From positions 186,001 to 250,000 of the forward strand of contig QPGO01000119.1 of assembly GCA_008632985.1 (NCBI GenBank): a stretch of 64,000 nucleotides of DNA, given 5' to 3'. The notes under the pieces are model-generated. The model was not told the origin of the DNA. It was given only the letters and a program-made list of their open reading frames with translations, and searched no databases. This stretch comes from Psammoneis japonica (Eukaryota). Shown one piece after another: positions 4,420 to 63,134 of this stretch; the stretch's first letter is position 1; each line of letters starts with the position of its first letter. Made by a program: the position numbers and the translations under genes.

Positions 4420-4509
4420 AAAAAACCCGGTAGACTCTCTAGACACTCTCTCTAGAGTCTAGCAGCTAGAGCTGAGTCTCAAAGGTGAGAAGTGTAACAG
4501 TCAATAGAT

Positions 4510-5845: not shown

Positions 5846-6049
5846 CTTGGTGCGTTCGCGCGCAATGAATGATTCAAAGCCGCGATGTTTGGTCGCGATC
5901 GATGCGAACACACTTTTACCGGTATGTCGCACGATCGATGCGAACACTACTACTTTTCAATCTGTTCAACTCACAATGTACACACATTCTACACCTTTAA
6001 TTGCAACCATCATCAACAAACAAGTGTCTGGGATAAAGCAAAAGTAGCA

Positions 6050-7732: not shown

Positions 7733-7799
7733 ATAATGCATGTTATAGCCCTACCTTATTCATTTCTGACAGCACCAGACAAGGATTGTAGAAAACGAA

Positions 7800-17026: not shown

Positions 17027-17090
17027 CCCCCTCCCTCCCTCCCTCCCTCCCTCCCNNNNNNNNNNNCCTCCTCCTCCTCCTCTTCCTCCT
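17027..17090. repeat. (CCCT)n/(CCT)n microsatellite flanking a short N gap
   Basis: Seen directly. Confidence 0.9.
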
Positions 17091-29900: not shown

Positions 29901-31840
29901 TGAACGGTCCTGTCAATGATTTGGACAAGGGTCATTTTGTCAAGACTGTCCGTGAGCCTCATGTCAAGAAAGCAGATGGCACGGTTGCCTGCATCTTTGA
30001 CAACCCACATGAGTTGTTTGCAGCAGACCTTTGCAATGAATGCTCCTCCCACTCAGCAGCCAAGGACAACTCAGCCTGCGACAACATCAAGGTTGATGAT
30101 GTTTGGCTTTCTCAGCTTCTGGTTCTGTCTGGAATCACAAATGCCTGTTTTTCTGCATGAGCACCCATTGGCAATTTCTGCATGAAATTCTACAAAGATG
30201 GTGTTTTGTGCTGGGTTCCCCAAGACTCCTTTGGCCACTCACATCCATGGCACACCTCTGTTTTGGCATGATGTGCAATGCTTTTGAGTGGAAAAAGAAT
30301 GGCATCAAAACCTCATGGCTCGCATGTTCATCATTCTTTTTGGCAATTTTTTGAAAATTCAGTGCACTTGCTGCACAGGATCCAGTGCAAATTCTGGGTG
30401 CTTTAGAAACATCCTGCAATGACCAATTCATCAATGGTGCAAACTGCTTCCATCCACACCCATCAGTCCCCAATGATTTCTTCAGCCCTTGCTGGCCAAT
30501 CAAGACTTGTTTTGCTTTGAGAACTGCATGCTTGTTGCTTCGGTTCATTGAGAGTCCAAATGTGGAGGTGGGTTGTTTGCCACATTAAATTGTGCCTGTC
30601 ATTGCTCCTGCACATTTGCTGCAATTTCTGCTGATTCAGTCTCAAGCATGGGGTGGGGCTGCATTGGGACACATGTTGGACCACAACACTCTCCTGTCTG
30701 TTGTCATGACACATGCCAGAACAGTCTCAAGTGTTTTTCCAGAAAAGTGAGCAAAATCTCTTCAAATGCATGGCACAACATCATGGTGGATGTGCTCTTG
30801 TGATCTGCATCCATGCACTGCAATGGCAATTGGCAGATGGATGGACAGGACTGCACAACAACAGTGGCAGGTCTGTCACTCATCCATCAATCCACTCCAA
30901 ACGCAGAGCAGCAGCCAGCACTCCTTTGCACACAAGCTTTGAACAATGCACACAGTTTTTGATGCTTGGGCACACTGACACAGCACTTGTCCTGCCTGGA
31001 AAATGTTTCAGGACATGTTTGTGCCTGCCCAATGACACATCTCAGACTGGCAGCCAGCAGCAGGCACAGGAGAAGCTCTGAGCAGCTCTGGTCATGGGGG
31101 GGCTTCTGGCAAAAAAAAAGAGAGTGTTGGCACTGCTGATGTCTGAGAGGAGGTGCCAAACATCCCCTTGTGCTGTTGTTCCTCTCAGAGCAGCCCACCA
31201 CCCTCTCATGCAGCATGGCCATAAAAGTTGGCAATGAACAGCTGTGCTGCAACAAGGCCTGGGGGGTTGCACCCAGCGCTGCTGGCTGGCTGGGGAGGAA
31301 ACTTTTTTGGCTTTTTGTCAGCAACAAAGCACAGCAGCCACACAATGCTGTGTGAGAGACAAGCTTGGCTGCTGGCCATTTTTTGTGGGTTTCAGAGTCC
31401 AACAAGCAAGGGAGCAGAGAGAGGGGAGCTTGGGGCCCTGGTGTGCAAGAGAGAAGCACGGACAAAGAAAGAAAAAGAGAGTGCGCTGCACCCCCGCCAG
31501 CTTTTTTTTTGTCAGCCAGTCTGTCTCTAAATGAACCCAACAAGCAGCAGTCAAGCAGCACCACTTTTTATTGAGAAACCCACCTGGCAGCAAAACAAAG
31601 TTGAACTGGCTTTCCCAGCTGCTGTGCTGGGGGTGCCCACATGGAAGTTTTGGGCACCACACTGGATCCTCCCAGCGTGTCTCAGATCATTGCTTTGTTC
31701 CTCTCTCAGACAGGTTGCATTTCTCTTTTTCTTTTTTGTTGCCACTCCACTCCTTCCACTCCTGGTTGTGCCTTTGTGTCAGTGTGCAGTTGCTCTGGTT
31801 GTCAACAACCGCCCTCCTTTGGCAGCTTCTCCTTGGCTGC
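26800..31840. repeat. TpA- and CpG-depleted degenerate block, probably TE-derived; includes repeat copy 3 (~30830-31920)
   Basis: About 5 kb nearly lacking TA and CG. No protein family assignable by eye. Confidence 0.65.
26903..26968. repeat. (CA)33 microsatellite
   Basis: Seen directly. Confidence 0.97.
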
Positions 31841-32119
31841 TGCTCTAGAGCTGCTCTAGAGAGCGGATTTTGCGATTGGGTGTCGCTTCAAGCGGTCATT
31901 GGAAGAGTCGTTCAATGACTCAAAGATGTGTCCATTCCACTCAGTGTCGTGCATGTCGTACTGCTTCCGAGTCACGCTTTGGCGCGACTCAACCGGGTCA
32001 CTGCATTGCACCCGCAATAACGTGATGAAGAGGCGATCTTGACAAGATTCAAGATTGAAGATATGGTGAGGGAAAAAAAAAAATCCGTCACACCACAACA
32101 AATCAATGAGATTTTCAAG

Positions 32120-39664: not shown

Positions 39665-39985
39665 GCTTTTGCACCAACCACACCGCGAATGTTTGTGCTT
39701 TCTGCTACTATTTCGTACTACTTCTACTCCTACTACTACCAGTGGGCGGACTACTACTACTCCAAGCAACACCTTGCTTCACGATTCTAATTTATTATTC
39801 CTTCTGAACAACGGCTTGATAAAGCTGCAACCACACCGAGCTTGTGTGTGGATTCTGCTACTCTTTAGCACTACTATCACTATCATACTGGAGAGGACGG
39901 ACTATGCTACTGTCAAGCAATAACACTGCCTCACGATTCTAATATAGTTTTTGTTTATTCCTTTTGAACAATGGCTTGATAAAAT
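39665..39985. repeat. Degenerate tandem duplication (~160-bp unit) at the CDPK stop/3' UTR
   Basis: caaccacaccg..ttctgctact and cacgattctaat..ttattcctt.tgaacaa.ggcttgataaa each occur twice. Confidence 0.7.
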
Positions 39986-41438
39986 TCGTCAAAGGATATT
40001 CTTCCATCATGATTGGTATCTACCAAATCCATCAATTCCTTGGCTTGTACCGAATCTCTTAAAATATCCTTGACATTATCCACCGACAATCCCTTGGAAT
40101 CGGACGTGACAAAATGATCAAACGCACTCTTGATGCGTTTTTCATCTTCCGAATTGTTGTCGTCACTAGTAGATGAAGCATTGCTATCGGCATGTTGCTT
40201 GTTTTTTTGTAAATAGGCATAGGTTGCCTTTTTGAGTTTTTGCAAGGCACGATCACGTTGATACTTTTCACTCTTGACACTATTCCGCTTTTGCTGTGGT
40301 TGTGCTCGCTGTGATGATGATTCTGGTTTTGGTTTTGTCTCATTGTTATACTTCGTAATCCATTCATGTTCCAACGCTTGGGCTGCCGTCATGCGTTTGG
40401 AGGGATCCATTTGCAACAAATTATTGACAAAGTCCTTGGCTTCATCGGAAATGTCATTCCATTCGGGTTGTGGAAAGCAATAATACCCCGCCGAAACGGA
40501 TTTGAAAATTTCGGCATCGGAATCCCCGTAAAAGGGTGGGTAGCCACAGAGTAGAATGTACTGTGTTGTAGTTAAGTGAATTAGAAAAGAAAAGATGGTG
40601 AGGATGTGCAATACAAAATTATAAAACAACAACAACAATAGCTCTGTTTTCTACACACACATACCGTAATGACTCCCAAGCTCCACATGTCACACGCCTT
40701 GGTGTATCGTCGTCGCAACACTTCCGGTGCGACATAATACGGCGTTCCGACCTTGGTTTTCATGATTTCTCCATCCAAATCAAATCTCGACAAACCAAAG
40801 TCGATAATTTTAATGTGTGTTCCATCTGGATTCAAAAACAAAAAATTCTCGGGCTTTAAATCCCGATGACAAATCTGTTTCTCATCGTGACAATACCGAA
40901 TCGCCGACAAGACATCCCGCATGAGCTGCGCCGCATCCACTTCGGAAAAATGCTCTCGTTTCAAAATTTCATCAAAGAGTTCACCTCCCTTGCATAGTTC
41001 GGTGACAAAATGCAAATAATGTTCATCTTCAAAGATTTGTTTCAATTCCAACACATGCGTATGATGCAGTGCTTGCAGGACATGCACTTCTCTCTCGAGT
41101 ACTTTGGTATTGCTGAGTTTAGATTTTTGAATCGATTTGATTGCACACCATTCACCCGTTTCACGATGACGGCATTTACGTACAATCCCATAATGACCGT
41201 GTCCAATCTCTTGAGGAGACACGTGATATGTATCGCGGACATGGGATAATCGACCCGTGACGAGTAAATTATGTTTTCCGGAAGACGGCGAAGCAGCAGC
41301 AACCGTTGTGGCGGTTGTAGCGGGTGTATCATGGAATTGAACAGCCTTACTGGCAGTAGCATAGGAAGACTTGACGACTTGGACAAGAGTCTTTTTGTCC
41401 TGTCGTTGTTTTCGTGCCTTGGAACTTTCGTTTCCCAT
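39955..41438 (-). CDS. Calcium-dependent protein kinase (CDPK/CAMK-like), 2 exons (41438-40665, 40560-39955)
   Basis: IGHGHYG, AIK, HRDLKPENFL, IDFG, GTPYYVAPE, DMWSLGVIT|YILLCGYPPFYG across GT-AG intron 40664-40561. EF loop DTNHDGRISFDE. MGNESS N-myristoylation-like start. Confidence 0.95.
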
Positions 41439-41693
41439 GGTGCTTGTCGCGTTTTTGTTGTTTTTTTGCGAGAATGCGTTCTCTCAGTGACTGGCAGCTG
41501 GTGTGTAGAATGTGGTACGAATTCTACGTGGACTGCCTGCGAGTGAAGTGGAAGAGAGCGTTGGAATGATTCCCACGATTGAATGTTGCTCGGAGTAAGA
41601 CCACGCGCGCGCGGGCGTCGCGTAGTAAAATCGAGCATCTATCTGTGCGTGCACACGCAAAAAAAGTTTTGCAACCCGAATTTGCTCGGCGCA

Positions 41694-43755
41694 TGTCATA
41701 AACCACTTGGCTGTTGTTTTGTGGGTCACCAAACTGTTAATGAATGCACACACACACACACAAAATGCACATGACAATGCATGTTGCATTCACCTCCCCA
41801 ATTGCACATCACAACATCATTCGTCAAAAACGGCACACAACACAATGAATGCTGACAGCCGTCAATGACATCACTGTGTTTGATCTTTGCTGTGCCATTG
41901 GCATGTGTCATTGTCATCACAGCATGCAGCCCTGCATGCGGCTGTTCTAATTTTTGGAAGTGTTTCTCGAGTGGTGTCTTCTCACCTGCTCTGTGGTGCA
42001 TGCATGGAGTGCACAGATCGAGCGTTTTCTTTGGCATTGTCTCCATTTGTGATTTGCTGTTTTTGCTTTTGGACAAACTTCTAATCAGCAACGTGTTGGA
42101 CATTAAAAATCATGTCTCTCTGTTGAAGACTGATTGTCCTGGTGCAGCTTGCACAGTGGCATGATGTGCACAGAAAGCACAGCAAAGGCTGCTGTGGATG
42201 GCACACCACAGAGTGAACAGATCACCAGCATCCAACGGTGAGAATGTTGTGGGTCAAATGCATGCAGCACATTGCCCAGCACTTGATGTGCACATTCTAC
42301 AGTTGTGCTCGACTGTGGATTTTGTGTGGTTGCAGGCTTGACTTTACAGCTCCACAGCCCTCTTCAACCATGTCTTTAAATCAGTGTCTGATGAGCTCAC
42401 TTCCACAGTCACGTGCAATTGACAATGGCCAAGGATGTCTGCTCTCAACCATGTTTGTTCCAACAGTCCAGCTGCAGTTGTGGATTCCTTGTTTGGAATT
42501 TCCACAACTTCAAACCATCTGGTTGCTGGATCAATCATTGTCAAACATTTCAGGGCTGGGGGTTCTTTGTTCTTTCCCTTGCAATGCACTTTGCATGGTC
42601 CAATGAGATCCACACACAGTCATTCCCATGGCACTGTTTCTGCACACTTGGGGGGGGGGGCAAATGTCCAAATGTCTTCTGTTTCTTTTTGAATTTTTGG
42701 CACATCTCACATTTTGACACACGCATTTTTGCATGTCATCATGCAGGGCAGACCACCACAAGTGTTTTGTGAGATGGTGTTTCTTCTGTTCTGTTTGTGC
42801 CAGGGTGAAAAAGGTGAGTGTGACACCAATCTGTTGTCACTGCCTTTTGCAATGTCTTTGGAGTGATGATTTTGTCCTTGTGACATGTGAGCAACCAGCC
42901 TCACTCACCTCCATGAAGAATCTTTGTGTGGTGTGTTGCGCCCGGCAATTTGGAGAGAATGTCTTTGTCCTGCTTTTGTTCAGTGTCAAGAACTTTGCAC
43001 GTCAACAGAAAGACATTGTCGCTGGATTTTGGTGGCAACATTTCAGCTGGTTCTTCATTGCTGAGGTTTTCCACAGGTTCCACTTTTTTCATGGTGAGTC
43101 TGCTGATTGCATTTGCAACAATGTTGGCCTTGCCCTTGAGGTAAATTGGTTTGGGACTGCACTCTTCCATTGTCAGATGCCAGTGCATGACTCTGTCCAT
43201 TGTGAAGTTTGTGTGTGTGAGATTTTTATGATCCATGTGCACATTCATCTGTTGGCCAAACAGCACGTTCCGGAACTCTTTTAACATCTCCACTGTGAAC
43301 AGCAGTTCTTTTTCTTCCATTTTAGCACAACGCATCTGTGCTCCATTCAGCTTGCGGCTGTGGAAAGCAACAGGCCAACTGTTCTGCATGACAACCACTC
43401 CCAATTGAGAATTGCTCGCATCAGCACACATCTCAAAGGGTTTGTCAAAATTTGGGTGTGACAGTGACATGTCTTTGGAGATGATGCGCTTCACATTTTT
43501 GAAGGCTTTTTCTTCCGTTTTGGTCCAATCCCACTTTGCCTGTGTTGAGGTGAGTCTGGCCAAAGGAGCAACAACGTGAGATTGTTGAGGCCACATGACT
43601 CGACAGCAGTTGATCATGCCGACAAAGCGTTGCAATTCTTTGTGAGTTTTCGGAGTTGTGATCTTGTTCTTTTGGATGAGTTTGATGCTCTGCTGAAGTG
43701 CAAGCCTCACCGTAATCCTGCCAATGTCATTGCCCAGTGCCTGAAGAAATGACAC
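41694..43755 (-). mobile_element. Degenerate Ty3/gypsy LTR retrotransposon remnant (RT C-terminus, RNase H, integrase, PPT and LTR start)
   Basis: FVGMINCCR, FDKPFEMCADAS..QLG, VAFHSRKL, EKELL, VHMDHKNL, KGKANIVANAISRL; integrase DLIGP..LTMIDPATRWFE; purine tract at 41789-41799 followed by TG on the minus strand. Confidence 0.9.
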
Positions 43756-43759
43756 GGGG

Positions 43760-44471
43760 ATCTGTTGCAGTCCGTCCTTTGCTCTGTGACTGCATCAGAC
43801 ATGCTGGGCTCTCCGAAGCTGGCTGGCTAGAAGCATGTTTGCAAGAAGATTGCGCAGCTGCAATGGTGGACAAGGACAATGTCCTTGTGACTTCATCATT
43901 GGATGGTGGAAAGGAAGGGTCTGGAAAAGGGCAAGCTGCTCGAGTCAGTTGAACAGCAATTCACGGTATCGTGCACATTCCGCATCATTGACATGCTCTT
44001 GAGACTTTGCGAAGAACACTGCATGCTGATCCATTGCCACAACAGACACCAGTTTTTGCCAAAAACTCTTGAAAGGTAGATGTCATTGTGGAAAAGCTAG
44101 AGAGGGCATGGGCATTGTTGCCGCCCCTCTTCACGGTGGACGAGGGAGTGAGAAGATTGCTTCAGTTACAAGAAGGCTAAGTTGGCATCGTTGTTGCTAA
44201 AGAGCTGACAGCACGAGGTCTCGACTCACCCCTTTTGACACATGTGATCAACTTTGATTCGCCAACAGATGCTTCGCACTACGCTCATCGCACTGGCCGG
44301 TGCGGGTGAGGTGGGAGACCAGGAGTTGTTGTCATCAACTTGACAACCAGTCCCCAAGAACGCAATGTACCGCAAAAGTTTGCCGATCAACTGGGTGTCA
44401 CCATGCATGCTGTTGAACCTCGAAATGGCAAACTTAACATTGTGGATCCTAGCTCACAAGACATAGACTAG
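43760..44471 (+). pseudogene. DEAD-box RNA helicase C-terminal domain pseudogene
   Basis: [24 protein letters not shown] (motif V) and [10 protein letters not shown] (motif VI, with the last Arg replaced by TGA at 44307). The frame ends at TAG 44471. The 5' part abuts the gypsy remnant. Confidence 0.85.
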
Positions 44472-44835
44472 CTAGCTACTGAGAGACACGACGACTACAT
44501 TCGGCACCCCAATAATTGTGCGCCTTTTTGTTGGTCAACTACCGGTACGATAGCAAACTTCGAGCAGCTAGCTAGAGAGAACGCACATCCTTCTTTATAA
44601 GCGCTTTCGGCAATTAAGAGACCACATACATGTAGAAGCAACTAAATTATCGTGCATATCGAACTTTTGTTACGCCATGTCTTCCGCTTCGTTTCTCGCT
44701 CCTCTGATCCATTCTCCTTTTGGATTGACCAAGCAAAGTTGCAGCGTTATGCATACTAATATTCGTAGCCGTGATGAAAGATACGATTCAGCTTCTCCCA
44801 AAGGCCAAAGAACAGCTCCGGAAGAGATTTCACAG

Positions 44836-46098
44836 TTATCCCTTCATGTAAGGCACGATGTGCTTCAAAGCAAATGAACGGATAATTTCATACTGTTCAT
44901 TTTCGTCCACCATATCTAACAGGTCAAGCTCATTGGCTACATCTCTATCGGCAGGAGGCGCAAAGAGGCTCAACATTTCAGTCATGTTCATTGGGGCACT
45001 GCTATTCCCGCGAACGATGCTTTGATTGTTTCGATCTGATTTGCCACCCCTCTGTGAAGAGGCATGTTGGCTTCTTTTAGGTGTTGGAGACTCATCCGAC
45101 CCACCAGCAGGCTTCGCAGCTCCCTCATCATGGCCACTACTTTCAATTCGCGTCTTCTTGCTCGTTGCGACACACTCCAAGGCAGCCTGAAGTGAAATTC
45201 GATTAGCAAAGGTGGCCGGAAGTCTGTCCTCGGGCACGTCTTTGACGAAAAGGCTATTCAGTATGTGTTTTGCCTCTGCCGCTGCGCTTGATCCCTTGAG
45301 ACAGATCTTGTAGAGAGCAGCCGAACCCAAACAATCCTCTCCTCTTGCAAACCAGAAGAAAGTCCATGAGTCGTTCAAATCGGTCAAAACGGAAACCACC
45401 GGACAATGGATATTAAGATAAGAGGCCGCAAAGTGTTCACCAATTGTTTGTGGGGTGTGATCTTTTTCTTGCAAGTTCTGGGGCTTCTTCAATTCAATCA
45501 GAGCTTCAATGTTGTTCCGAATTGCCGCATTGTTAACGTGAACTGATTTTGCGATGACAACATCAGTAGTTCCACGTATTTGTCGACTTTCGGGTTCTGA
45601 TCGAAGGAAATGTACCGTCAACAGGTCCCTATCTGGCTGCACATCTGCTAATGCATACTCCACTGGTTTTTGTATGAAGGCATTGAGATGAGCCATATAC
45701 CCTTCACGATTCTCGTCAGAATCTTCGTTACTTTTTAACCACAAAAACCCATCGACATGCTGCCCTGACTGCGAAACAGCAGTTCTATCTCTCCAGCCAG
45801 CCCCTTTCTCTTGCATATTCAGCATATCCATCAGGTCATTTTTCGTTGAACTAGTTGCTCCAGAAAGTACAATTGTCCTTTTTCTTGTTTGATAATCCGT
45901 TGCAAACTGTGCAAGACCAGCAACGGTTTCTTCGGAGAATTGCTTCGGGGACGGCGCCTGCTGTTGCTGCTGCTGAAATTGGGTCAGTAAAGTTCGTCGT
46001 TCAACAGGTCCAAGTCCATTGTACTCTTCAGCTGTCATGGCCTCCAGAAGCCATGACTTGTAGGCATCATCAGTTATTCGGGCCCAAGGAGCCGACAT
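44836..46098 (-). CDS. Crinkler/CR-effector-like protein with a probable PD-(D/E)XK restriction-endonuclease fold
   Basis: Intact ORF from ATG 46098. GTTDVVI...IELKK...Q..GE....S...VVSVLTDLNDSWTFFW pattern. Confidence 0.6.
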   Translation of the reverse strand: MSAPWARITDDAYKSWLLEAMTAEEYNGLGPVERRTLLTQFQQQQQQAPSPKQFSEETVAGLAQFATDYQTRKRTIVLSGATSSTKNDLMDMLNMQEKGAGWRDRTAVSQSGQHVDGFLWLKSNEDSDENREGYMAHLNAFIQKPVEYALADVQPDRDLLTVHFLRSEPESRQIRGTTDVVIAKSVHVNNAAIRNNIEALIELKKPQNLQEKDHTPQTIGEHFAASYLNIHCPVVSVLTDLNDSWTFFWFARGEDCLGSAALYKICLKGSSAAAEAKHILNSLFVKDVPEDRLPATFANRISLQAALECVATSKKTRIESSGHDEGAAKPAGGSDESPTPKRSQHASSQRGGKSDRNNQSIVRGNSSAPMNMTEMLSLFAPPADRDVANELDLLDMVDENEQYEIIRSFALKHIVPYMKG

Positions 46099-47865
46099 GG
46101 TCGTGTGGTTGTTGTTGTTGCTGTTGTTGGAGCTCTCTTGTCGCTCTATCACTCTAGCTAGAGATCGATGTCTTAAAATTCAACACATCGCGGCAATGAA
46201 GGCAAGCAAGGCGCGGATTACGGTAGCACGTACATTTCGCGCGTACAGCACCCCGTTTCACCACGGTTCAACTTACGTGCGGTGGTATTAGCGTCGAATC
46301 ATATGACTAAAAATATTTCTTGTCAATTACAGACGATATCCCTGCTCATTACCGGCATGCACAGAAACGCGCAGCGAGGTCCTGAGCATTTTCGATGGCA
46401 CAGAACCTTGCCACGGGTTTCTGTGCCATCTACGACAAAGCTGCGTAGATTTGTACCGAAAAAAATCTGAGAACATTTTGGGATTGTTTTGAATTGCAAT
46501 GTTCACATTTAACTCACCTTGAATGTTCGAAAGAGACAATGTTCCAGCTGTTGGTTCAACAAGATGAACAGACACGATGACAGGATTTGAACAGGATTCA
46601 GGTGCGCGCGAAATGTCGCACGCTGTTTAGTTTGCCGCGCACAGTTTTGTGTGCTTTGGTTCCGCGCGTTCGCGCGCGATGCAGTTTGCTTTCGAGCCAC
46701 AAGGCTCACAAGAACAATGACAGTGGCCCGATCATGCCGACTCACACGTCTTTCGGCTCCTGCAACGGTCTCTGAGCGGAGACTCATCTGCTGTTTAGAC
46801 AGCAGCAAGGAGTTGTTGTTTGAATTCTTGCCATTTGCCTTCAATTTCTGTCAGATTGACAGTCTTGCTCATTGTCAACCCATTGAGCAACCGCCATCAT
46901 CGTCGTTGATTTACCAACGATGCCACTTCAATCCTGCGTGGACCTCCGTGTGTGTCCCACACACATCGGCAAGTCTGCGCGCATTCAATGCCAGGGCATC
47001 GGCAGGAAGTTAACGTCACCGTCAAGTCTCCTTGCCGCTGGACATCTGGATTGATTGCACCACCTTTGATCGCTGAAGACACACACTCAACGGTCACATC
47101 CAAGTCTGCCCTTGATCCTCATCCCTTGATGTGCCTGTTCATCGGTTGACGGTCAAGAACCCTGCACATTCAAGGATCTTCGTCGCTGAGGACATGCACA
47201 CACACACACATGTCTTCACGGCCAAGAACCTGCACCCACTCTTCGGACTGTGGTTTTGCCACCACTCCACAAGCACACCGAGTCCATTGCACCTGATCCA
47301 CCCCAGACTGCTGGTGCTCCACAGTTCTGCCAGGTCCACGAGGACGACTGTGAGAGCAAGCAGCCGTGATTGCAGCCTGCGTTGGGGCGAGGGTGCTTTC
47401 CCGCATTTGTTCGTTCGTCCACAGTGCCTGGCGCCTGCATCAACTGGCCAGCCTGATCGGGAAATCCAACCGACATAAAACAAGAATGGTTCGGGGGTCT
47501 TGTCCACCTCTGGTCAGCTTGCCTGCAGGGGTTTGCAACCTGCTGCTCCGCTCGCAAGCAACCCAAAGCGCCGCTGGCTGTGGGTTCGGACGTGCTGGCA
47601 CAACTCTACGGACTGGATGGGAAGTTTAGCACTTGACAACGAATGGGGTGGCACAACCCGGCGACTTCTGATTTTAAGATGGTCCAAGATTTCAAGTCAA
47701 GTCTAGCTCAAGTCACGTCTTTTTCAAGCCAAGTTCCAAGTCAAAACTCCGAGTCAAGATCGCGCTCTAGATTGGTTCCTGTCTTTTGTTTCTACTGCAC
47801 CGTCCTCCGTCATGGTTCTCACGTGACAGCAACAAACCGAAAGCTTCAAATACATTCTAGGCACT

Positions 47866-50412
47866 GTGCTCAATCAAGACGATGACAGCCCTCTTCGTTC
47901 TGCCCTGTCCACCAACGGGATTGAATCGTGCGAGGAATTGTTCACGTTCTTACCCACCCAAATTGACGCCCTCACTTACAGAGACGGTGCCAATGTAGTG
48001 CCTTTGCCACGGACCCACAGAAACCTCCTAGCAGCTTTGATCAGCTTCTACTTTGTCAAAGTTTGCAACGGTGATGATGTGACCAATGAACCCCAGTTGC
48101 TCACACCCGAGGAATTTCGCAACTGCAGCCTTGGTCCGGACTGCTTGACCTCTCTAGCCACTGGCGCAGCACCCTCCACACCTGTGCCGAGTCCCTTGCC
48201 ATCCAAACCAGATGAACCCAGTGCCATTTTGACACCAGCCTTGCACTGTGCCACCACTCAGGTGTCTCCTAGAAGTGGTGTCAGTCGCACCCCGCATGTC
48301 TTGACCAACCCACCTGCAAGCAACCTCGGCCCAGTGCAGGATTGCAGCCCTTGCACAGGCCCGCACTTCGAGACCAGTTGGGACACTCCACCCATGGCTT
48401 CCAAAGCTGCAGTCTTGGCACCCCGCAAACCACGTGCTGCCAACCTCCACGTGTTGACTTCTGTCGCTGTCACCCTTCACAGTCTTCGTTTGGGAAGTGA
48501 TGGAGGTGACAACTTGCTTCTCGTATCTCCTGATGGGGAGCCTCCTTTTCCCGTCATTGAATCTGTTCACAACAGTTCAACCGGTTCATCAGATGGGGAG
48601 TTCAGGACATCCAAGCAGCTTCGTTGTCTTCGGATCCTCCAAGCATCGCACCATGAGACCAGGCCTCCTGATTGGATGCCTCAAGTCTCGTACCTCGAGA
48701 CTGGGCCTCCTGATTGGATGCCTCAAGTCTCGCACCTCGAGACCAGGCCTCCTGATTGGATGCCTCAAGTCTCGCACCTCGAGACCAGGCCTCCTGATTG
48801 GATGCCCCAAGTCTCGCACCTCGAGACCAGGCCTCCTGATTGGATGCCCCAAGTCTCGTACCTCGAGACCAGGCCTCCTGATTGGATGCCTCAAGTCTCG
48901 TACCTCGAGACCAGGCCTCCTGATTGGATGCCCCAAGTCTCGTACCTCGAGACTAGGCCTCCTGATTGGATGCCCCAAGTCTCGTACCTCGAGACTAGGC
49001 CTCCTGATTGGATGCCCCAAGTCTCGCACCTCGAGACCAGGTCTCCTGATTGGATGCCTCAATGGATGCCTCAAGTCTCGTGCCTCGAGACCAGGCCTCC
49101 TGATTGGATGCCCCAAGTCTCGTACCTCGAGACTGGGCCTCCTGATTGGATGCCCCAAGTCTCGTACCTCGAGACTGGGCCTCCTGATTGGATGCCCCAA
49201 GTCTCGCACCTCGAGACCAGGTCTCCTGATTGGATGCCCCAAGTCTCGTACCTCGAGACTGGGCCTCCTGATTGGATGCCCCAAGTCTCGTACCTCGAGA
49301 CCAGGTCTCCTGATTGGATGCCTCAAGTCTCGTACCTCGAGACTGGGCCTCCTGATTGGATGCCCCAAGTCTCGTACCTCGAGACTAGGCCTCCTGATTG
49401 GATGCCCCAAGTCTCGCACCTCGAGACTGGGCCTCCTGATTGGATGCCCCAAGTCTCGCACCTCGAGACCAGGTCTCCTGATTGGATGCCTCAAGTCTCG
49501 TACCTCGAGACTGGGCCTCCTGATGGGATGCCCCAAGTCTCGTACCTCGAGACCAGGCCTCCTGATTGGATGTCCCCAGTCTCGCACCTCGAGACCAGGC
49601 CTCCTGATTGGATGCCTCAAGTCTCGTGCCTCGAGGCTGGGCCCCCTGATTGGATGCCCCAAGTGTCGTACATCGAGACTGGGCCCCCTGATCGGATGCC
49701 CCAAGTCTCGTGCCTTGAGACCAGGCCTCCCAACTGGACTCTCCACGTCTCGTGCCTCAAGACCGGGCCTCCCAATTGGATCCTCCACGTCTCATGCCTC
49801 AAGACTCGGCCTCTGGATTGGATCCCTCAAGTCTTGCGCCACGAGACTCGGCCTCCTGATTGGATCCCCCAAGTCTCACACCTCAAGACTTGGCCTCCTG
49901 ATTGGATCCCCGAAGACTCGTGTCACAACACTGGCAAGTCCTTTTGGATCCCAGAAGTCTTGCAGCACGGGACTGGTTGCCCCAATCAGACATCTGCAGC
50001 CTTGCACCACAAGATGTCTTGCTCCAATCCGATCCCCGAAGGCTTGCACCTTGAGACTCGTTTCTCCAATTGGATCAGTCTCTCAGGAGATGCAGTCGGA
50101 TTGGTGGAACACAAGACCACCGCTTGTGCCTTTGAACTGATGCTTGCTCTGTTCCCCGAGTCGTGCAAACGCCATGCCGCCTGCAATGTTGCCCCACCGT
50201 TCAACATTGTCAACCAGACCAAGCTTTGCTCCTTCCATTGCAAGCGCGGATGTGGAATCCCACAAGATCCCAAGTGTGCCTTGAGCTTTGAAAAGCACAA
50301 CGGCATCTGCAATTGGGGAGACGCAGCTCATCTCAAGATGACCCACTTGGAGAATGCAACGTTGCTCTCGGATCTTGATCCTTTCTTGTCTCCTCATGTT
50401 TTGGTGCTTTGA
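47866..50412 (+). CDS. Element-encoded ORF: gag-like N-terminus fused to 14-aa tandem repeats (ETRPPDWMPQVS[Y/H/C]L)
   Basis: DDDSPLRSAL..GI...EL......IDALTY...PL....L....F...LTPEEF resembles diatom copia gag N-termini. The ORF has no ATG start and is probably mutated. Confidence 0.5.
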   Translation: MLNQDDDSPLRSALSTNGIESCEELFTFLPTQIDALTYRDGANVVPLPRTHRNLLAALISFYFVKVCNGDDVTNEPQLLTPEEFRNCSLGPDCLTSLATGAAPSTPVPSPLPSKPDEPSAILTPALHCATTQVSPRSGVSRTPHVLTNPPASNLGPVQDCSPCTGPHFETSWDTPPMASKAAVLAPRKPRAANLHVLTSVAVTLHSLRLGSDGGDNLLLVSPDGEPPFPVIESVHNSSTGSSDGEFRTSKQLRCLRILQASHHETRPPDWMPQVSYLETGPPDWMPQVSHLETRPPDWMPQVSHLETRPPDWMPQVSHLETRPPDWMPQVSYLETRPPDWMPQVSYLETRPPDWMPQVSYLETRPPDWMPQVSYLETRPPDWMPQVSHLETRSPDWMPQWMPQVSCLETRPPDWMPQVSYLETGPPDWMPQVSYLETGPPDWMPQVSHLETRSPDWMPQVSYLETGPPDWMPQVSYLETRSPDWMPQVSYLETGPPDWMPQVSYLETRPPDWMPQVSHLETGPPDWMPQVSHLETRSPDWMPQVSYLETGPPDGMPQVSYLETRPPDWMSPVSHLETRPPDWMPQVSCLEAGPPDWMPQVSYIETGPPDRMPQVSCLETRPPNWTLHVSCLKTGPPNWILHVSCLKTRPLDWIPQVLRHETRPPDWIPQVSHLKTWPPDWIPEDSCHNTGKSFWIPEVLQHGTGCPNQTSAALHHKMSCSNPIPEGLHLETRFSNWISLSGDAVGLVEHKTTACAFELMLALFPESCKRHAACNVAPPFNIVNQTKLCSFHCKRGCGIPQDPKCALSFEKHNGICNWGDAAHLKMTHLENATLLSDLDPFLSPHVLVL
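48655..50076 (+). repeat. 42-bp tandem array: 25 conserved units (48655-49716, one with a 12-bp duplication) plus ~8 decaying units
   Basis: Unit GAGACYRGGCCTCCTGATTGGATGCCYCAAGTCTCGYRCCTC. Confidence 0.97.
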
Positions 50413-50759
50413 CTCCAAAGTTCTTCAGTCAATCCGAAGTCGAATCTGTTTCTGTGGCTCCTCAAGCAAACTGGGGAGTGACAGGATTTGAGCAGGATTC
50501 AGGTGCGTGCGAAATGTCGCGCGCTGTTTAGTTTGCCGCGCACAGTTTTGTGTGCTTTGGTTCCGCGCGTTCGCGCGCGATGTAGTTTGCTTTCGAGCCA
50601 CAAGGCTCACAAGAATGACAACAGCAGCCCGATTGTGCCGACTTGCACGTCTTTCGGCTCCTGCAACGGTCTCTGAGCGGAGACTCATCTGCTGTTCAGA
50701 CAGCAGCAAGGAGCCATTGTTTGAATTCTTGCCATTTGCCTTCAATTTCTGTCACACGA

Positions 50760-53700
50760 AACCCCGCCGTGTTGCTGCTTGTCGGCACCCTCGGAATGCT
50801 GCAACATTTCTTCCTGATTGTTGGCAACTGAGTTTCTTCAACTTCTGTGCAATTTCAAGCAAACAAGCATTGTGGGATGTTCCTTCGAAGATCAATGATG
50901 CAACGAGCTAATTGTCAGTGCATGATGCACTTGCGATGGCTGCCGAAACACTTCCAGCACAATGGCGAAGGTTTCGGGTTGAGAAAAAAATGTGCAATCT
51001 TCCGTTGCGGTCTTGCCATGTCACAAGTCTGCAAAAGATCTTGGCACCATTTCTACGCTGGTGCTAAAAATTTTGCTCTACAGACACAAATGTTGTGGAT
51101 GAACCGTGGTGGTTTGTTGGTGTGTTTGCCACGTGCGCACTCTAGAAAGCAACGCATTTTGTGGCGCTGTTCAACATTGATTCATTTCAGTGCTTCGTGC
51201 TCTCGTGGATGGGAGAATGAACAAAAAATGCTTGCAAAAGCACAATGACAGAATGTGCTTCGACTCCGTTTGCGTTCGTCACTCGGCAGTTTCCAAGTGT
51301 GTGTGGCCACATGACAGCCTGTCAGAGACAGCAACACTGATGTTGCATGTGTTGTGTTTCTCAGGAATCAGGAAAGAAGTGAGTGTCAATGAATGAGACA
51401 TGCAAAACACACGTTGATTTTTGTTCTTTGTTGCCCGTGTTGGCGATGCAGGTGTCGAAGAGTCTCGATCTTGTTGTCCTTTGGTGTCAGTTTGTCTTCA
51501 TCGCACTTTGAATTCATGATTTCTGAACTGAATTTAAGCAACAACAGCACAGTCCAACAATGCCATTGTCATCACATCTTGCCTCACACATTGTTTGCTT
51601 CTGTTTTCATGCCCAAATGTTGTTCGAAAGTGTTGCTGCACTTGCGCGCACACTGCACTGAGATTCCCTCGGTCGGTGCAACAGATGTTTAGCCAACAGT
51701 GCCAGGTTGTCCAGAGTGATGATGCGGCAGCTTGGACAGCTGATTCGCTGTTGAGGTGACCTCATCGGCACGCAGACAAGCAATCAATCTTCTTGATGAG
51801 GATTTGCTTCTCTGAGTGTTTGGATCCGGACCAGCATGATGCAGTCGACATGGCATGCTGCCGCACTCTGCATGCTTTGTCAGAGCAGCTCTGGTTTCTT
51901 GCACACCATGGCAAGAGGCAAGAGAGAGCAGTGAGTCAGCCGTTTGTTGCCATGGTGGGTGCCAATCAACTTGCTTGCCCACTCATGTGCACCAATGGCT
52001 GCTGCTGCTGCCACCCAGATTGCACAGGCAGGCAGCACAAGAGAGCAGGTGCCATCCAACACCACCAATGACAAGCCCAGAAGTCCTTGCTGGCACAACA
52101 TCAACATCTTTTTGTTGAGCTTTTTTGTGCTTCTATTTGAAGGCTTGGTTCCTCCAAACACTGGTGTGCTGGCATCTCTTGCTTGCACACAGTGTGCTTT
52201 CACCTTTTTTCTCCAGCAGCCTGCAAACAACAAGTGATTGAGAAAAGTTAAAGAAACACAACTGCTGTGGTGTGACACACACATTGCTCAGCAAAGATGT
52301 GGGCAGGTTGAAGCACCAAACCAATGTTGCTGTGCTGCTGCTTTGAAGCATTCTTTGAACACCCAGCTGAGCATGCACAAAAGTGAAGCCAGCCCAGCTG
52401 TTCAGCAAAGAAGCAAGAAAAGTGACAGACAAAGTGCTTTTGCATGCCCCCCCCCGTGAAGAGCTCCTGTTGCTGTTGGAGCTTCACCACTTGCCAGCTG
52501 GTGTGCATTTGGTCTCACCATGATCTCTGAGCCTGCTGCGTGGCTTGCAAAAACACGTTGCCATTGTTGTCAATCACTGTTGCCATGTTGGCCAGGTGCA
52601 GAAGCTAAAAAGTGAACACAACAAGACCTGCAACTCAAACCAAGTTGCAAACACAAACTTGCCACATTGTCCAAAATTGTCGCCAGTGTGCATCACACTG
52701 TGACTTTGTCTGTCTGTCCTGCAAAAACTGACTCTGACCTTGATGCTCCAACACACTTCTTCACACAAGCCATGTCAACTGGTCAACCTCATGCCCATCA
52801 AGCATGGGTGGATGACACTTGGAAACCATGCAACCCAACAACATGTTGGCTGTTCTGCCAATTCCAATGGCCCACATCATCCAACTCTGCTGACAGTGAA
52901 CGATCATTGTCAGGGCAACCCTCCTTCTCACATGCCCAACAAACTTGTTGCATTGCCAGCACTCAATCTGCTTCATCTCACTCCATGCAAAACTTGTGCC
53001 ACCCGGTTTCTTGTTGGTCCTGCAGCAGGTGTGTCCAACACCCATGGTGCCTTTTCAGCTGGATTGGGGTGAGTGTCAACCCCCAATGTGAGCCGCTGAT
53101 GCAGGTCTTTCAAGACTTGCCAGTGTGTTCCTTGGCACCTTCCACTGGCATCGCCACCAATGGCTTGTTCCTTTTTTTGTTCCAGGCGTCATTGACATCC
53201 TTGCTGGGTCCATCTTCTTTTTTGGTGATTTCTTCCGTCCGGGATGATCCTGCCACAGGACGTGTGTTTCCACTCCTGTTTCAACTGAGCTTGCAAACCA
53301 ATTGTGCCAACAATCTTAAAAAAAGTGCTTCCACCTCATCTTGATGAATGAGCGCCAGCTGCTTCCAAGCCTTGACTGCCTTTTCGTTTGCATCTGACAA
53401 GATCGACTTGCCACATTGCCCGCCACAATCGTCGCTCAGTGTGTCTTTGTCTGTGTCTGTCCTGTGAAAACTGCCTCTAACCCCAATGTTCCAACAGGTG
53501 CATGCTGGACCAAGTGGGTCGAGAAGCACACGGCGGATGAAAAAATGAAATGCTGGTCATGTTGCAAGAACAAATCATGTGGGTGACCCTCAAATTGTTC
53601 CACGAAAATGAGTCACGGAGATGATCATAGACAAATTCAGTCGAATGAATCAACCCACGACCAATGTTGATTCGGGCAATGCGTGAGGTCATTCAATGCT
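50760..53700. repeat. TpA-depleted degenerate block
   Basis: TA is rare throughout; CG is also rare at ~51900-53100. Confidence 0.6.
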
Positions 53701-53834
53701 TGCCTCGTGAGCCCTCCTTCATCTTTTCCTTGTCACACGGCACCCGCACATGATCGTAAAATTGTGCCCAGTGACAAGACACTGTTCACAGACATTCTAA
53801 CATCTTAGAATGTCCTGCTGCAAACGATTTTTAA

Positions 53835-55070
53835 TTGAGCCCCGGGTGGTGTGGTTTTCACCACGACGTCCATCCCATTTTTTCTCGTCATGTTTGGTTT
53901 GAGAACAAGTCCAAAAGATCCAAAATGAGGACCATGCGTTGCTTTGTCTCTTGGACGCCAGTGTTGAGTGCCCCATTTGCAAGGGGTGAGTTCTTGTGTG
54001 GCACATCAAAGGCGCCTGGAGAGACAAACGGACATGGAGGTCTTGAACGCGACGAGGTCAACGCACCAAATGGTGCGACATGCACAATTTACGGAGGGAT
54101 CAAGGGATCGTCTCCAGCCACGATTTATGACAAAGTCCAAGTGAGTGGGGGAGCGACACTCATCATCACTGGACAAGTCACCTTTGAAGGAGAGATCACT
54201 TTAAAACGTAGGAGCAGTTTGGTTGTTTCATCTGAAGAAAATGTTTGTCCAATGTTCAAGACGGGCATCAAGGCAAAAAGAACGAGCCAGGTTTCCATTT
54301 CAGCAGAGGGATGCTGCGTTCATGTGGGCAGAAACCTTGAAGTCTGCGAAAGTTCCGGATCCAGTTCCAGTGTCGAGATCCAAGGAGTCCCAGCAGACAC
54401 TGTCACAGTTGACAAGAATTCTGTTCACACTCTCAAGACAGTCAACAACATGTTGAAGAGAGGAAAGTCATTGATCGCATCAAAGAACACTGTGACGGGC
54501 TCCAAGAAAGCTTTCATCAGCATGAACTCCAACACCAAGAGGATTGCCATCAAAGGAAACAAGTTCCACGCCATTGACATTGTTGGCAACGTCGCAACTG
54601 ACTCAATCGTGTTCAGTGGGAATGCGCACAACTCAACGTTAGTTTTTCAAGACAATGATTCAGGCAAGAAAATGAAACTCAAGAACAACGATGGCGCAAA
54701 AGGAAGATCTCTTGACTGTCAAGGGAACGTCGTTGGTGGGAAGTTCATGGTGAAGAGACGGTGCAAAGCTCCAAACCCTCAGAAGCAAGTCGCAGCTTCT
54801 AATTCTTCCCCATCAAGAAGCCCGCTGACGAAGGAATTAGAAACCGAAGGCACAGACCAGAACGGTGAGACAGGCGGTGGTGCCACGGCACGTGCTCTCA
54901 CCCAGAATCCCACGCCTTCGCCAACACCACCGCCAACGACACCCTCAACTCAGGAGCCGACGCCCGAGCCAACCACAAGAGAAACGGCTGAACCAACTCC
55001 ATTCCCGATGCGAGCTGCGACAAACAAGTCGGAGGGAGGTCTTGAGGCACAGACCACCACAAAAAAGTCA
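53835..55070 (+). pseudogene. 5' part of a host gene (beta-helix-like Asn/Gly-rich repeats and PT-rich linker; probably extracellular) interrupted by the LINE
   Basis: The ORF runs ...NPTPSPTPPPTTPSTQEPTPEPT...TTTKKS up to the TSD and continues in frame at 63135. True start uncertain. Confidence 0.7.
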
Positions 55071-55184
55071 AAACAAAACCAAAATTCCATGTTTGCAGTG
55101 CTGCCACGCTTCCACCCTGCAACTCCGGCAACAAGCCAACCCACACCCCCAGCGCACTAAAAGTGCGGCAGGAGCAAACAGTGG

Positions 55185-58100
55185 TTAGCCGAGATCGGCG
55201 TCACCCGAGGGTGACGCCAAGCCAAAATAACTTGCGATGGTTCTGGTGCCTCGTGCAGCCAAACATTTGGCTTCACGCATGCTTGATTTAAAGACTGGTT
55301 TGAACATGGCCAACCAGTTTCGAATCCGGTGAGTGGAGTGTGACAGGTGTTCTTCTGCCGAATCAAGGAGGAGCGCCTTGTCTCTTGCAAGACAATTGTC
55401 TGTACGAGAACAAATGGCCTTGACCTCTGCTTCTGCGTCTCGTCTTTGAGACGACTTCCTCGTTTCCGAATCGTGTCCGTGCACAGCGTCGTTGTGAGCG
55501 TCCCAGAGGTCCCACCACTGCTCCCCACATGAAATTCCCAATGGTTGCAGCCCAATCCAGCCATTTCTGTTGATCTGAGAGAGTCCGACAAATGCCGCTC
55601 GACGAAAGGTGAGAGGTTTGCGTCGCATTCCACTGGACAGAAAAACGGCCATTAAACAACTGACGCCAACCTGTTTCCCCTTGGGAATGAAATGCGGGCA
55701 CGACGCTGTGATGAAATTGTTCTGAGTGCAAAAGCTCGCCTCGAAACCATGCTTCAACAGCCGAAATTATCAAGTCTCGTAAGGAAGGAGACATGTGAAC
55801 ATCATCGCACTTCTTGCGCAATCCTTGCAAAAATTTTCTGTGCCAGGCTTCATTGTGAGGGCAACGGAGAATGTGATCTCTGTCTTCCATGGGGTCCTGA
55901 CAGTGAACAACAACAGTCCGGACGTGTCGGATTGCATCTGTGCACAATCTTGTTGGTGGGCAGAAGATCTTGAACCAGCTTGACGGCACTGACTTTTCGA
56001 CGAATGTTTCGTGACATCAATTTCGAATGAACGTCCCAATCAATCGATGCGCACACTTCGTCGGACCAACTGTGTTTCTCTTTCATGTGCTGAACCAGTG
56101 CAGGACTCGATGCCTGACATCTGACAACCGGCTTGCATTTGGAAGAAACAGTGGCTCCTTGAAGAAGCAGGTTTGCTCGGCAATGAGGCATGCGGGGAGC
56201 AGCAAGAGCATTGCCCGTAAATCGACCTTGGAATTGTCCAGCGAGTCTGTCGGCACGTGTGTTCAACTTCGCCGCTTGAGAGAGAGAGTCAATGGGAAGG
56301 ATGTCATCTTGGTGTCCCTTCACCCAGTGAATCTCGACTGTGGGACACGACAGTTCATCAGTGCGTGCTTCTGACAGCTGTCTCAGGGAATGGAAGACCT
56401 CATTGACAACACCCCAATCCGGAGAGAGAGCATCAGCAATGTGAAAACGCCAGTGGAAGTCTCCTTGGATCTCCTCCTCGTCGGCAGGATGAGGAATCAC
56501 CTGGAAATTCGAGACAGTGCGAATGAGAGCGGAATTGTCGCAATGCAAATCAGCGCCGCTGACCTGTGTAGAACAACAGTCTGACAATCGGATCAGAAAA
56601 CGGAGAAAAGACAGTGGACCGCATGCCTCCGCACGACAAGACGATGGGCGAAAACCGAAAACTGGACCGGCACAATCCACAAGAGGAACCCCGTCGATCG
56701 CAATCGTCCACCCGAACGTGCCTTTGAAATGGAGGACCGAACCGTCGCCAGCTGCTGAAACCTTGTGGGTGACGAGGAGCTCAGCGATTTCAAATGTAGA
56801 CCGATGTAAATGCAATTCTTCGAACAGAGCAGATTCCCACCGAGGAAGAGACCGCAGCATGGCCAAGAAATCATTCGGGACGGGAGGGACTGTCGGCAAG
56901 GACACTGGAGAACCGAATGACTTGATCCGCCACAAACCGGTTGTAGTCGTAACTGCTGGCACAGGGGAAGCGGCTGGGGAAAGATCTGGAACGTTTTCCA
57001 GAGCAGCAAGAGTCTCCGCACAACCTTGGTGCACTGGGAAAATCTCGAAACCCGAATCTCCACGAATGCACAAGTGATCCTCGGAGGATTCGTAATGTGC
57101 GACATGTGTCATGCGCATTTCCGTAGCTGGTGCAACCCATTGACCTAAAGGGTGTCGCAGATCGAGCGAGTCTGGTTTGCAAAACAAGGAACAGGCTCGA
57201 CGCCACTGTTTCCATGCCCGAGCGGATGGACGTTGTTGTTCGATGGGATTCAGAGTGCTGCGACTGCTGAGAAGGAACGATCGGCCGTTCACTTTAAAGG
57301 GATCGAGCGAAAAACCATCTGGAGAGGCAACATCCGACAGAGTCAAAACATTTGGATAAAGACGACAGTGGTTGACCCACTGCATCTCACGATCACTGAA
57401 CACCTGGGATTGAAGTGCAATGTCCATGATGCATTGGTCGTTGTCTCGCTGGAGTGGAAGCACTCCAGCACAATCACAGTCGATGGTGGCATCGATCCGG
57501 GCCAAGAATGAATGCAAGGACATGAACCATTTCGATTCGGAATGAGGGAGCTTGGCATGGACGTCCTGAAGAAAACTCACACCTGTGCCAAGCTGCAACT
57601 GAATCCACAATGCAGCGATTTGCGACAACACCTGAGGTTGCCCAGAGCCCCGCCAGTGGGTGAGAAACTGCAGAACCTGCGCTGCACCCTGTTCCACGTC
57701 TAAAGACCTGAAACCACCGCCTCCCAGGGAATGAGGTCCGAAGAGGACGTCACGTTTCGAGTTCCGATTGCACCCGCATTTGGCAAAAATGGCACGCATG
57801 GCCTTCCTCTGCACTTCGAGCAACTCTTTCTCCTTGAAGTGAGTGTTCGGGAGAACATGCGTGGTTGCAGACAGATGACAAGCAAAATGGTGAGTCCATG
57901 ACTCGTGTCGATCTAAAGGACAAGACCGAAGGAAAAGGGCAATGCCGTCACTCTTTTGTTTCAGAGCCGAGTGCTGGGTCTTTTGAGTCCCCGCTGGAGC
58001 TTTGCAGTGTCCAAGTGTCTTGTGAGAAGAGCATGCGGACAATTGTTTGCTTGACCCGGTCGTGGTGCGGTCTGCAGAAGAGATTTCAATGTCAATGTCC

Positions 58101-61076: not shown

Positions 61077-61125
61077 TGTTGGGCCATGCTCCTCCGAAGA
61101 GAAGACTGAGGCTTAGAGCACTGCA

Positions 61126-63042: not shown

Positions 63043-63134
63043 GGTGTATCGGCAGTTCTACGGAGAGCGTGGTACTAAAAACACGTAGGTATATTCAGTA
63101 CAAGTAATCGCAGAATTATACCACAAAAAAGTCA

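Follow-up and report, generated by a model that had tools for sequence, protein, structure and literature searches.

In Neurospora and other ascomycetes, repeat-induced point mutation (RIP) is triggered by duplication and changes C to T mainly at CpA, which makes TpA and leaves the DNA AT-rich. A mutation process acting on TpA itself has been reported from mutation-accumulation lines of Bigelowiella natans, in which 230 of 231 new single-base changes within two integrated viral regions were A to G or T to C (Mettrop et al., bioRxiv 10.64898/2026.01.13.699255). As far as the accessible text of that preprint goes, every such change fell at TpA, the rate was raised about 1000-fold in some lines only, the targets were integrated giant-virus and virophage DNA, and TpA-poor genes were enriched in reverse-transcriptase and DDE Pfam families; its authors suggest an ADAT-like DNA adenine deaminase. 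The same text has no mention of diatoms or retrotransposons ("transposable" occurs four times, in general remarks), and a full-text literature search found TpA hypermutation described in this preprint alone and nothing on diatoms. Another candidate precedent, the SPLASH preprint PMC9258296, was rejected, "diatom" and "hypermutation" both occurring there in unrelated passages. Here we describe a 5'-truncated Ty3/gypsy pol fragment (41861 to 43746, minus strand) in a window of 64,000 nucleotides, the whole stretch of DNA analyzed, from the diatom Psammoneis japonica (GenBank assembly GCA_008632985.1, contig QPGO01000119.1, positions 186,001 to 250,000). This fragment is probably a dead gypsy copy that was hit in place by a TpA-specific A:T to G:C process acting on either strand, with CpG decay in addition.

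The fragment retains the end of the reverse transcriptase (RT), the RNase H, the integrase zinc finger, the DDE core and the integrase C-terminus. Its longest open frame (42901 to 43794, minus strand) encodes 297 amino acids with a single Tyr and matches Pfam RT_RNaseH_2 (E=1.3e-21) and RT_RNaseH (E=5.5e-19), so that the RT-linked RNase H domain of Ty3/gypsy pol is present. A homology search for longer proteins started from 1725 candidates, of which 210 qualified as relatives at E<=1e-3. Of these, 120 were listed and are 39-54% identical to the element; RT, RNase H, an integrase zinc-binding domain and an integrase core (annotated as PF00078, PF17917/PF17919, PF17921 and PF00665) occur together in the majority of the 120 and in almost every one that is full-length. 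A hidden Markov model (HMM) was built from 77 intact relatives of 900-1250 amino acids, picked by length from the 120, and its positions 451-1044 of 1056 align to the window, spread over three frames. The order RT, RNase H, integrase is collinear with the model, with the integrase after the RT, unlike copia. Named relatives come from Amphora, Epithemia and Chaetoceros, and a search of near-length proteins yielded no relative above 56% identity. When relatives were used as tblastn queries, P0001 and P0004, the two inspected of eight, matched the window at this element only. Upstream of 43746 neither tblastn nor the HMM detected homology to the relatives, with gag, protease and the RT core missing (long terminal repeats were not searched for), and the object is a truncated fragment rather than a whole element. 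It is also dead, because it is truncated, frameshifted (at least eight frame changes, in 13 frame segments, some of them tiny) and carries four in-frame stops, three TGA and one TAG.

The first-pass annotation of this DNA had claimed that conserved tyrosines of gypsy Pol were systematically replaced by His or Cys, quoting six strings in support. All six are indeed found on the minus strand within 42340-43755; INCCR, PFEMCADAS, VAFHSRKL, MRCAK and VHMDHKNL lie inside the longest open frame, and DLIGPC (42593 to 42610, minus strand, the first Asp region of the integrase core, with the Cys codon TGC) lies inside the frame 42344-42619 (minus strand). The replacement extends well beyond these strings. 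Tyr-majority columns were defined as HMM columns with Tyr in at least 50% of the 77 relatives, and at the 18 columns so defined the window carries His at eight, Cys at six, and Tyr, Trp, Phe and Val at one each. The sole surviving conserved Tyr codon is a TAC at 43141 to 43143 (minus strand), in the coding-strand context TTAC, which belongs to a partly spared class. With alignment posteriors of at least 0.7, Tyr was kept at 1 of 17 columns, and the other consensus residues, taken together, at 196 of 305 (Fisher p=1.6e-6). The replacing residues are also distinctive, as His or Cys account for 14 of the 17 non-Tyr residues in the window and for 93 of 318 cells in the relatives (p=1.6e-5), where departures from Tyr at the same 18 columns comprise 129 cells of Phe, 75 of His and 18 of Cys. 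Individual relatives hold between 0 and 6 His plus Cys at these columns, with 23 of the 77 holding none, 26 one, 21 two, five three, one four and one six. At 12 of the 14 His/Cys sites the residue of the window occurs in at most 4 of the 77 intact relatives, and at eight sites it occurs in none. Tyr makes up 0.3% of the open frame overall; the 120 relatives have a median Tyr content of 3.7%, and none of them falls below 2.36%.

The six motifs do not all carry the same weight. At the Cys position of FEMCADAS the 77 relatives have His in 42, Tyr in 22, Glu in 9, Phe in 3 and Val in 1, and for the first His of VHMDHKNL the counts are 39 Tyr, 29 His, 6 Phe and 3 Trp, so that these two motifs are not diagnostic alone, His being common in intact relatives. 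In the other four motifs the columns concerned are Tyr in 50-76 of 76-77 relatives, and at most one relative shows the residue of the window; the DLIGPC Cys column, for example, is Tyr in 50 of 76, Trp in 23 and Cys in 1. The objection that intact relatives may already carry His or Cys at these positions, which the first-pass annotation had itself raised, therefore applies to two of its six motifs only (columns 531 and 593, with His in 42 and 29 of 77). Column 601, with His in 17 of 77, is naturally variable too and is among the 18 Tyr-majority columns, outside the six motifs.

The dinucleotide composition of the element shows the same loss at the DNA level. Dinucleotide rho values are 0.08 for TA, 0.26 for CG, 2.19 for CA and 1.67 for TG, corresponding to observed and expected counts of 11 and 97 TA, 26 and 86 CG, 242 and 169 TG, and 198 and 98 CA. 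For comparison, DNA was taken from the best 79 metagenome loci encoding relatives, all of them intact and TA-normal, in which TA rho spans 0.60-1.06 with a median of 0.74. Relative to the median rho of these loci, the element has lost about 86 TA and 60 CG and has gained about 73 TG and 100 CA. CA and TG lie outside the range of the relatives, and the remaining 12 dinucleotides fall inside that range or close to it. GC content is 0.46, AA (rho 1.13), AT and TT are not depleted, and the depletion is restricted to TA and CG.

The direction of change, which the first-pass annotation had given as TA to CA or TG, is fixed by outgroup comparison, from the residues of the relatives at the His/Cys sites. 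Other residue classes changed in corresponding ways. Conserved Ile is kept at 6 of 27 columns and is otherwise Val at nine, Thr at four, Leu at four, Met at two, and Pro and Ala at one each; the codon is ACA in three of the four changes to Thr and ATG in both changes to Met. Conserved Thr became Ala at seven columns, both Leu to Ser changes are TCA, Leu to Pro is CCA, and both Val to Ala changes are GCA. Codon usage was then compared between 586 window codons and 62,391 codons from 65 intact relatives, with frequencies given here per 1000 codons, window before relatives. All TA-containing codons together stand at 10.2 and 113.5, with TAY at 1.7 and 39.5, TTA at 3.4 and 21.8, GTA at 3.4 and 15.0, and CTA at 0 and 18.1. 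The codons expected as products are raised, with CAY at 59.7 and 27.8, TGY at 35.8 and 15.2, GTG at 32.4 and 9.1, CTG at 29.0 and 10.0, and TTG at 27.3 and 12.7. The proposed check on conversion of ATA to ATG or ACA came out as predicted, since ATA is at 0 compared to 19.1, ATG at 35.8 compared to 21.3, and ACA at 49.5 compared to 22.5. Both strands were hit, with TpG and CpA products alike, as the inferred coding-strand changes comprise 16 of T to C type and 22 of A to G type, and the Tyr columns alone give 8 His and 6 Cys. CpG decay on top of the TA loss, also proposed from the sequence, is confirmed by 11 of 12 changes at conserved Arg being CpG transitions (the 12 include CAA five times, CAY four times and TGT twice) and by conserved Thr now being ATG at three columns; conserved Ala is now GTG at one.

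The TA-poor zone containing the element covers 41740 to 44076 without regard to strand and holds 13 TA in 2337 bp, where about 160 are expected from composition (200-bp bins). CpG is low across this zone as well, and TG/CA is roughly doubled. On its low side the boundary coincides with the element end, the last normally spaced TA lying at 41738. On the other side, read depth falls from 500-9000 to 59 at about 43680, and the stretch beyond (43681 to 44076, no strand) is a TA-poor flank that is single-copy at a likeness of at least 85%. This flank contains 3 TA, compared to 25 expected from composition or 12.6 from host-gene rho (Poisson P=0.0014), so that the zone runs about 330-400 bp beyond the truncation point into single-copy DNA. 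In the reverse direction, a host kinase gene with EF hands (39958 to 41483, minus strand) is untouched, with TA rho of 0.46-0.54, CG rho of 0.94-1.23 and 3.3-4.8% Tyr; its best named matches, at 47-61% identity, are from Cylindrotheca, Cyclotella, Chaetoceros, Seminavis, Mayamaea and other diatoms. Host open reading frames taken together have a TA rho of 0.50. Counted over six frames, stops in the zone are 117 TGA compared to 19 TAA plus TAG, and in a host stretch 196 TGA compared to 169 TAA plus TAG. The erasure is thus confined to the zone, spilling into the flank and sparing the kinase gene.

Frames in the flank gave no Pfam family at E<=1 and no convincing PDB match; an assignment to the epsin ENTH domain was dropped, its only PDB matches (E about 0.25) being treated as chance. 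By eye only, the flank resembles the upstream part of a helicase domain. A fragment of a DEAD-box helicase C-terminal domain follows at 44073 to 44470 (plus strand), with Pfam Helicase_C matching at 44181-44309 (E=1.8e-8), DDX3X as best solved match (E=6.7e-8), and in-frame stops at 44178 (TAA) and 44307 (TGA); its extent upstream of 44181 was read by eye. TA density recovers across this fragment. The orphan helicase fragment abuts the transposon fragment, and no N-terminal half was recognized nearby.

The element is one of many TA-poor stretches in the window, as 62 of 128 500-bp bins have a TA rho below 0.2, and only 132 TA are left in 31 kb of depleted DNA compared to 955 in 24.5 kb of normal DNA. 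Retention of TA by tetranucleotide context, calculated as depleted versus normal DNA of the window with both strands counted, shows that the erasure depends on neighboring bases. Retention is 0.62 for TTAA, 0.40 for CTAA/TTAG, 0.23 for CTAG and 0.15 for GTAA/TTAC, then 0.08 for GTAC, 0.056 for ATAA/TTAT and 0.054 for CTAC/GTAG, and reaches 0.015 for ATAG/CTAT and 0.011 for both ATAC/GTAT and ATAT. This heterogeneity is strong (chi2=165, 9 degrees of freedom, p=5e-31), the ranking is the same in CpG-poor and CpG-normal blocks, and within the zone around the element 10 of the 13 surviving TA are in the four most-spared context classes. A one-neighbor model, in which the target A is protected by a 3' A more than G, G more than C and C more than T, fits within two- to three-fold; a model reading the base 5' of T is equivalent, and retention alone cannot separate the two. 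The Tyr sites available here are few, with a purine before the codon at 6 His and 3 Cys and a pyrimidine at 2 His and 3 Cys.

Loss of TA and loss of CpG do not fully overlap. Seventeen TA-poor 500-bp bins (8.5 kb, mostly at 50.5-60 kb) have a CG rho of at least 0.6, and among the bins of the window there was no clean case of CpG-poor DNA with normal TA, only one mixed 1-kb bin. Because TA-poor, CpG-normal bins exist with no clean converse, TA loss is separable from CpG loss and is faster or wider. In the block at about 50500-62000, TA rho is 0.05-0.22 per kb and CpG is at 0.56-0.94 except in 52001-53000, and this block may have been targeted more recently, with TA erasure further advanced than CpG decay. 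Long Tyr-poor frames were observed in this region at 55853-58111 (minus strand, 753 amino acids, 0.3% Tyr), 59139-60377 (minus strand, 413 amino acids), 53835-55157 (plus strand, 441 amino acids) and 61129-63057 (minus strand, 643 amino acids). None of the Tyr-poor frames of the block matched a Pfam family at E<=0.001, and a protein atlas gave only weak leads for the 753-residue frame, to diatom clusters and to clusters bearing RT/RNase H. Four other blocks (501-4000, 13501-18000, 21501-24500 and 27001-32000) have TA rho of 0.0-0.1 and CG rho of 0.07-0.4, and hold many overlapping frames on both strands with 0-0.7% Tyr and 5-13% Cys; the frames tested from them had no Pfam match. Loss of TAA and TAG stops seems to create spurious long open reading frames.

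Other copies of the family were examined through contigs of sequencing run X1, which may be the sample of the assembly itself; it was the only run found to carry the locus, and no RNA run was found to do so. On 41000-45000 the word depth of these contigs is 56-59 over the flanks and 278-8972 over 41670-43679, and 681 contigs could be aligned (66 at a likeness of at least 99%, 83 at 95-99%, 261 at 90-95% and 271 below 90%), showing that the gypsy family is high-copy in this genome. Contigs at single-copy depth contain the same TA-poor sequence, departing from it at 0-3 sites per 200-1400 bp. The few sites at which they differ (42306, 42346, 43754-43755 and others) may be allelic or assembly differences; at 42346 the window has TA and the contig TG, and at 42306 the window has TG and the contig CG, too few to interpret. 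At 43168-9 the window reads CA and most other genomic copies read TG, and at 42819-20 these states are the other way round. Many other copies have 2-base gaps, at 42115 (depth with gap 488 of 940), 42445 (156 of 544) and 42722 (349 of 1203), and because frame changes of the window copy fall where these gaps lie, several of its frameshifts are private to it.

Related proteins from environmental samples provide additional support that the signature recurs. Of 240 retrieved proteins, 233 cover at least six Tyr columns, and in ten of these 55-86% of the covered Tyr columns show His or Cys; nine of the ten contain 0-1.2% Tyr overall and P0148 contains 2.2%. Nine of this group were traced to their source along with P0022, which is less affected, and all are JGI/ENA metagenome predictions without a name. 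Six environmental gypsy fragments form one subfamily, 68-85% identical except for one identical pair, and its variable columns include four with Cys/His, two with Cys/His/Tyr and one with Cys/Tyr, in addition to Ile/Val (8), Ala/Val (6), Leu/Ser (4), Leu/Pro (3) and Ile/Met/Thr (2). Since a change between Cys and His otherwise needs two base changes, the Cys/His columns imply independent hits on one ancestral TAY, and the TG/CA differences among genomic copies at 43168-9 and 42819-20 tell the same. A three-state pattern of TA, CA and TG was also seen within a single repeat array, a 42-bp tandem array of 30 units at 48655-49926 in an 861-residue frame (47827-50409, plus strand), which encodes ...PPDWMPQVS(Y/H/C)LET.... 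Unit positions 37-38 are mainly TA (Tyr), CA (His) or TG (Cys), with T in 19 and C in 11 at position 37 and A in 23, G in 6 and C in 1 at position 38, and positions 6-7 are CA, TG, TA (3 units) or CG (1). Because the array has a 126-bp higher-order period, some of these states were copied and are not independent.

Taken as a sequence of events, a 5'-truncated copy of a high-copy Ty3/gypsy element would have inserted first and then been mutated together with a few hundred bases of flank. The process would change A:T to G:C at TpA only, giving TA to TG or TA to CA, with ordinary decay of CpG to TpG or CpA on the same DNA. Within the frame this would turn TAY into CAY (His) or TGY (Cys), ATA into ATG or ACA, TTA and CTA into TTG and CTG or TCA and CCA, and GTA into GTG or GCA, and across codon boundaries NNT|ANN would become NNT|GNN (Ile to Val, Thr to Ala). 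The agent may be an enzyme or a base modification aimed at silenced repeat DNA, and as to chemistry, it could deaminate the adenine of 5'-TA or alter the thymine so as to pair with G; it would be an agent of the same kind as that behind TpA hypermutation in the B. natans lines. Several points weigh against this account. The flank at 43681-44076 could be an unrecognized old repeat rather than host DNA. Three of the Tyr-majority columns (593, 601 and 810, the last with 23 Trp) are naturally variable in relatives. The closest intact relatives are distant, at 39-56% protein identity, so that polarity comes from amino-acid columns and not from a nucleotide alignment. The test for a preceding T is modest, with T before 14 of 19 inferred first-position A to G changes and a control that is itself high (25 of 54 unchanged G-initial codons). 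Finally, the genomic copies, of whose 130 variable places 40 were inspected, may have most TA losses in common.

A dedicated, chromatin-directed TpA mutator in diatoms, sparing TTAA, the same system as in B. natans and part of an old defence mirroring RIP within the SAR group (stramenopiles, alveolates and Rhizaria), is a tentative proposal that we rate at somewhat below even chances; such a mutator would prefer TA before a pyrimidine (equivalently, after a purine) and would target transposons and other silenced DNA. Alternatively, TpA could carry a base modification in silent chromatin that miscodes slowly, in the way that 5-methylcytosine erases CpG, in which case the loss would be a by-product with no dedicated mutator or defence. 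The coincidence of TA loss and CpG loss in many window blocks is in line with this, the symmetry of TpA and the two-strand hits fit a maintenance-type mark, and dependence on neighboring bases fits any sequence-reading enzyme. However, the roughly 8.5 kb of TA-poor DNA with normal CpG, with the converse absent save for one mixed bin, argues against it, as does the B. natans process, whose steep rise in some lines only looks regulated in the accessible text of the preprint (10.64898/2026.01.13.699255), and a by-product of modification appears unlikely, though less so than the explanations that follow.

Hyper-editing of transcripts from A to I by an ADAR-like enzyme, followed by reverse transcription so that the copy arrived already mutated, would suit a retroelement target, and A-to-I editing favors a 5' U (10.64898/2026.01.13.699255, in the text accessible). 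Editing of sense RNA would give A to G on the coding strand only, and here 16 T to C-type changes stand beside 22 of A to G type; by this two-strand pattern the explanation is largely refuted. The TA-poor zone moreover extends into single-copy flank, window blocks without a recognizable retroelement show the same signature, and AA, the other acceptable 5' context, is not depleted, leaving RNA editing highly improbable. A gypsy lineage that is TA-poor by nature, with His or Cys as the usual residues at the sites in question, is scarcely credible. The His residues of relatives at columns 531, 593 and 601 do speak for such a family trait, but eight of the 14 His/Cys sites have a residue absent from all 77 intact relatives, the DNA of 79 intact relatives has a TA rho of at least 0.60, and the fragment is truncated and frameshifted with stops and has synonymous codon use shifted alike. 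Among 240 proteins and 79 loci there was no intact close relative with the same residues and a TA rho near 0.1. Equally little weight is given to an artefact or a compositional force, be it the miscalling of modified bases, gene conversion biased to GC or compositional selection. Some sequencing platforms do systematically miscall modified bases. The k-mer contigs of X1 at single-copy depth nevertheless give the same sequence (with the limit that X1 may derive from the assembled sample itself), metagenome proteins without a name, predicted from other assemblies, have the same Tyr to His/Cys pattern, and gene conversion is opposed by an unchanged GC content of 0.46 without depletion of AA, AT or TT.

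The preferred reading, a dead gypsy copy mutated in place at TpA, concerns an object that is itself ordinary; of interest is the mutation process of which it keeps the record, a real and strongly directional one that has scarcely been described. To date, A:T to G:C change that erases one targeted dinucleotide has appeared in one 2026 preprint only, and its near-saturation in a diatom transposon, with an outgroup-polarized protein read-out, adds retrotransposons to its targets and a second major lineage of algae to its hosts. The sequence rules found here (TpA only, both strands, TTAA spared, separable from CpG decay) are clues to the enzyme. There is also a consequence for annotation, as removal of TAA and TAG opens long Tyr-free frames in dead DNA, which gene callers may take for genes, and unnamed metagenome "hypothetical proteins" with the same signature are already in public protein sets. 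If a system shared by diatoms and B. natans is borne out, it would represent genome defence spanning at least two SAR branches.

Compared with the known systems, the locus resembles RIP in its dense transitions in repeated or mobile DNA, with genes spared, some leakage into the flank and transposon frames killed. RIP is the functional analogue, with opposite chemistry and direction; here TpA is destroyed and CpA and TpG are made at an unchanged, non-AT-rich composition, and fungal RIP was rejected because its chemistry (C to T at CpA, excess TpA) is not what was found. CpG decay by cytosine methylation is matched by the low CpG of the element and by the CpG transitions at Arg and from Thr to Met, but it accounts for the CG part only; it can neither delete TA nor convert Tyr to His or Cys. 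ADAR-type A-to-I hyperediting shares the A to G outcome and, in the accessible literature, a 5' U/T preference; it acts on RNA, on one strand per molecule and with a loose 5' preference, whereas here both DNA strands and the flank are affected with strict TpA specificity. The closest system is that of B. natans, with the comparison limited to the accessible text of the preprint. Events there were seen de novo and those here are known from standing sequence alone, polarized by outgroup; the host is a stramenopile diatom here and a chlorarachniophyte there, and the target here is an LTR-retrotransposon fragment with CpG decay superimposed. Erasure in the diatom is near-complete, with a TA rho of 0.08 compared to 0.45 in their viral region, and a flanking-base rule with TTAA spared is found here, the words "flanking", "trinucleotide" and "tetranucleotide" not being in the B. 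natans main text. In both, the changes are A to G or T to C at TpA only and on both strands, fall in foreign or mobile DNA alone, with host genes unaffected, and leave clusters that are poor in TpA and rich in CpA plus TpG.

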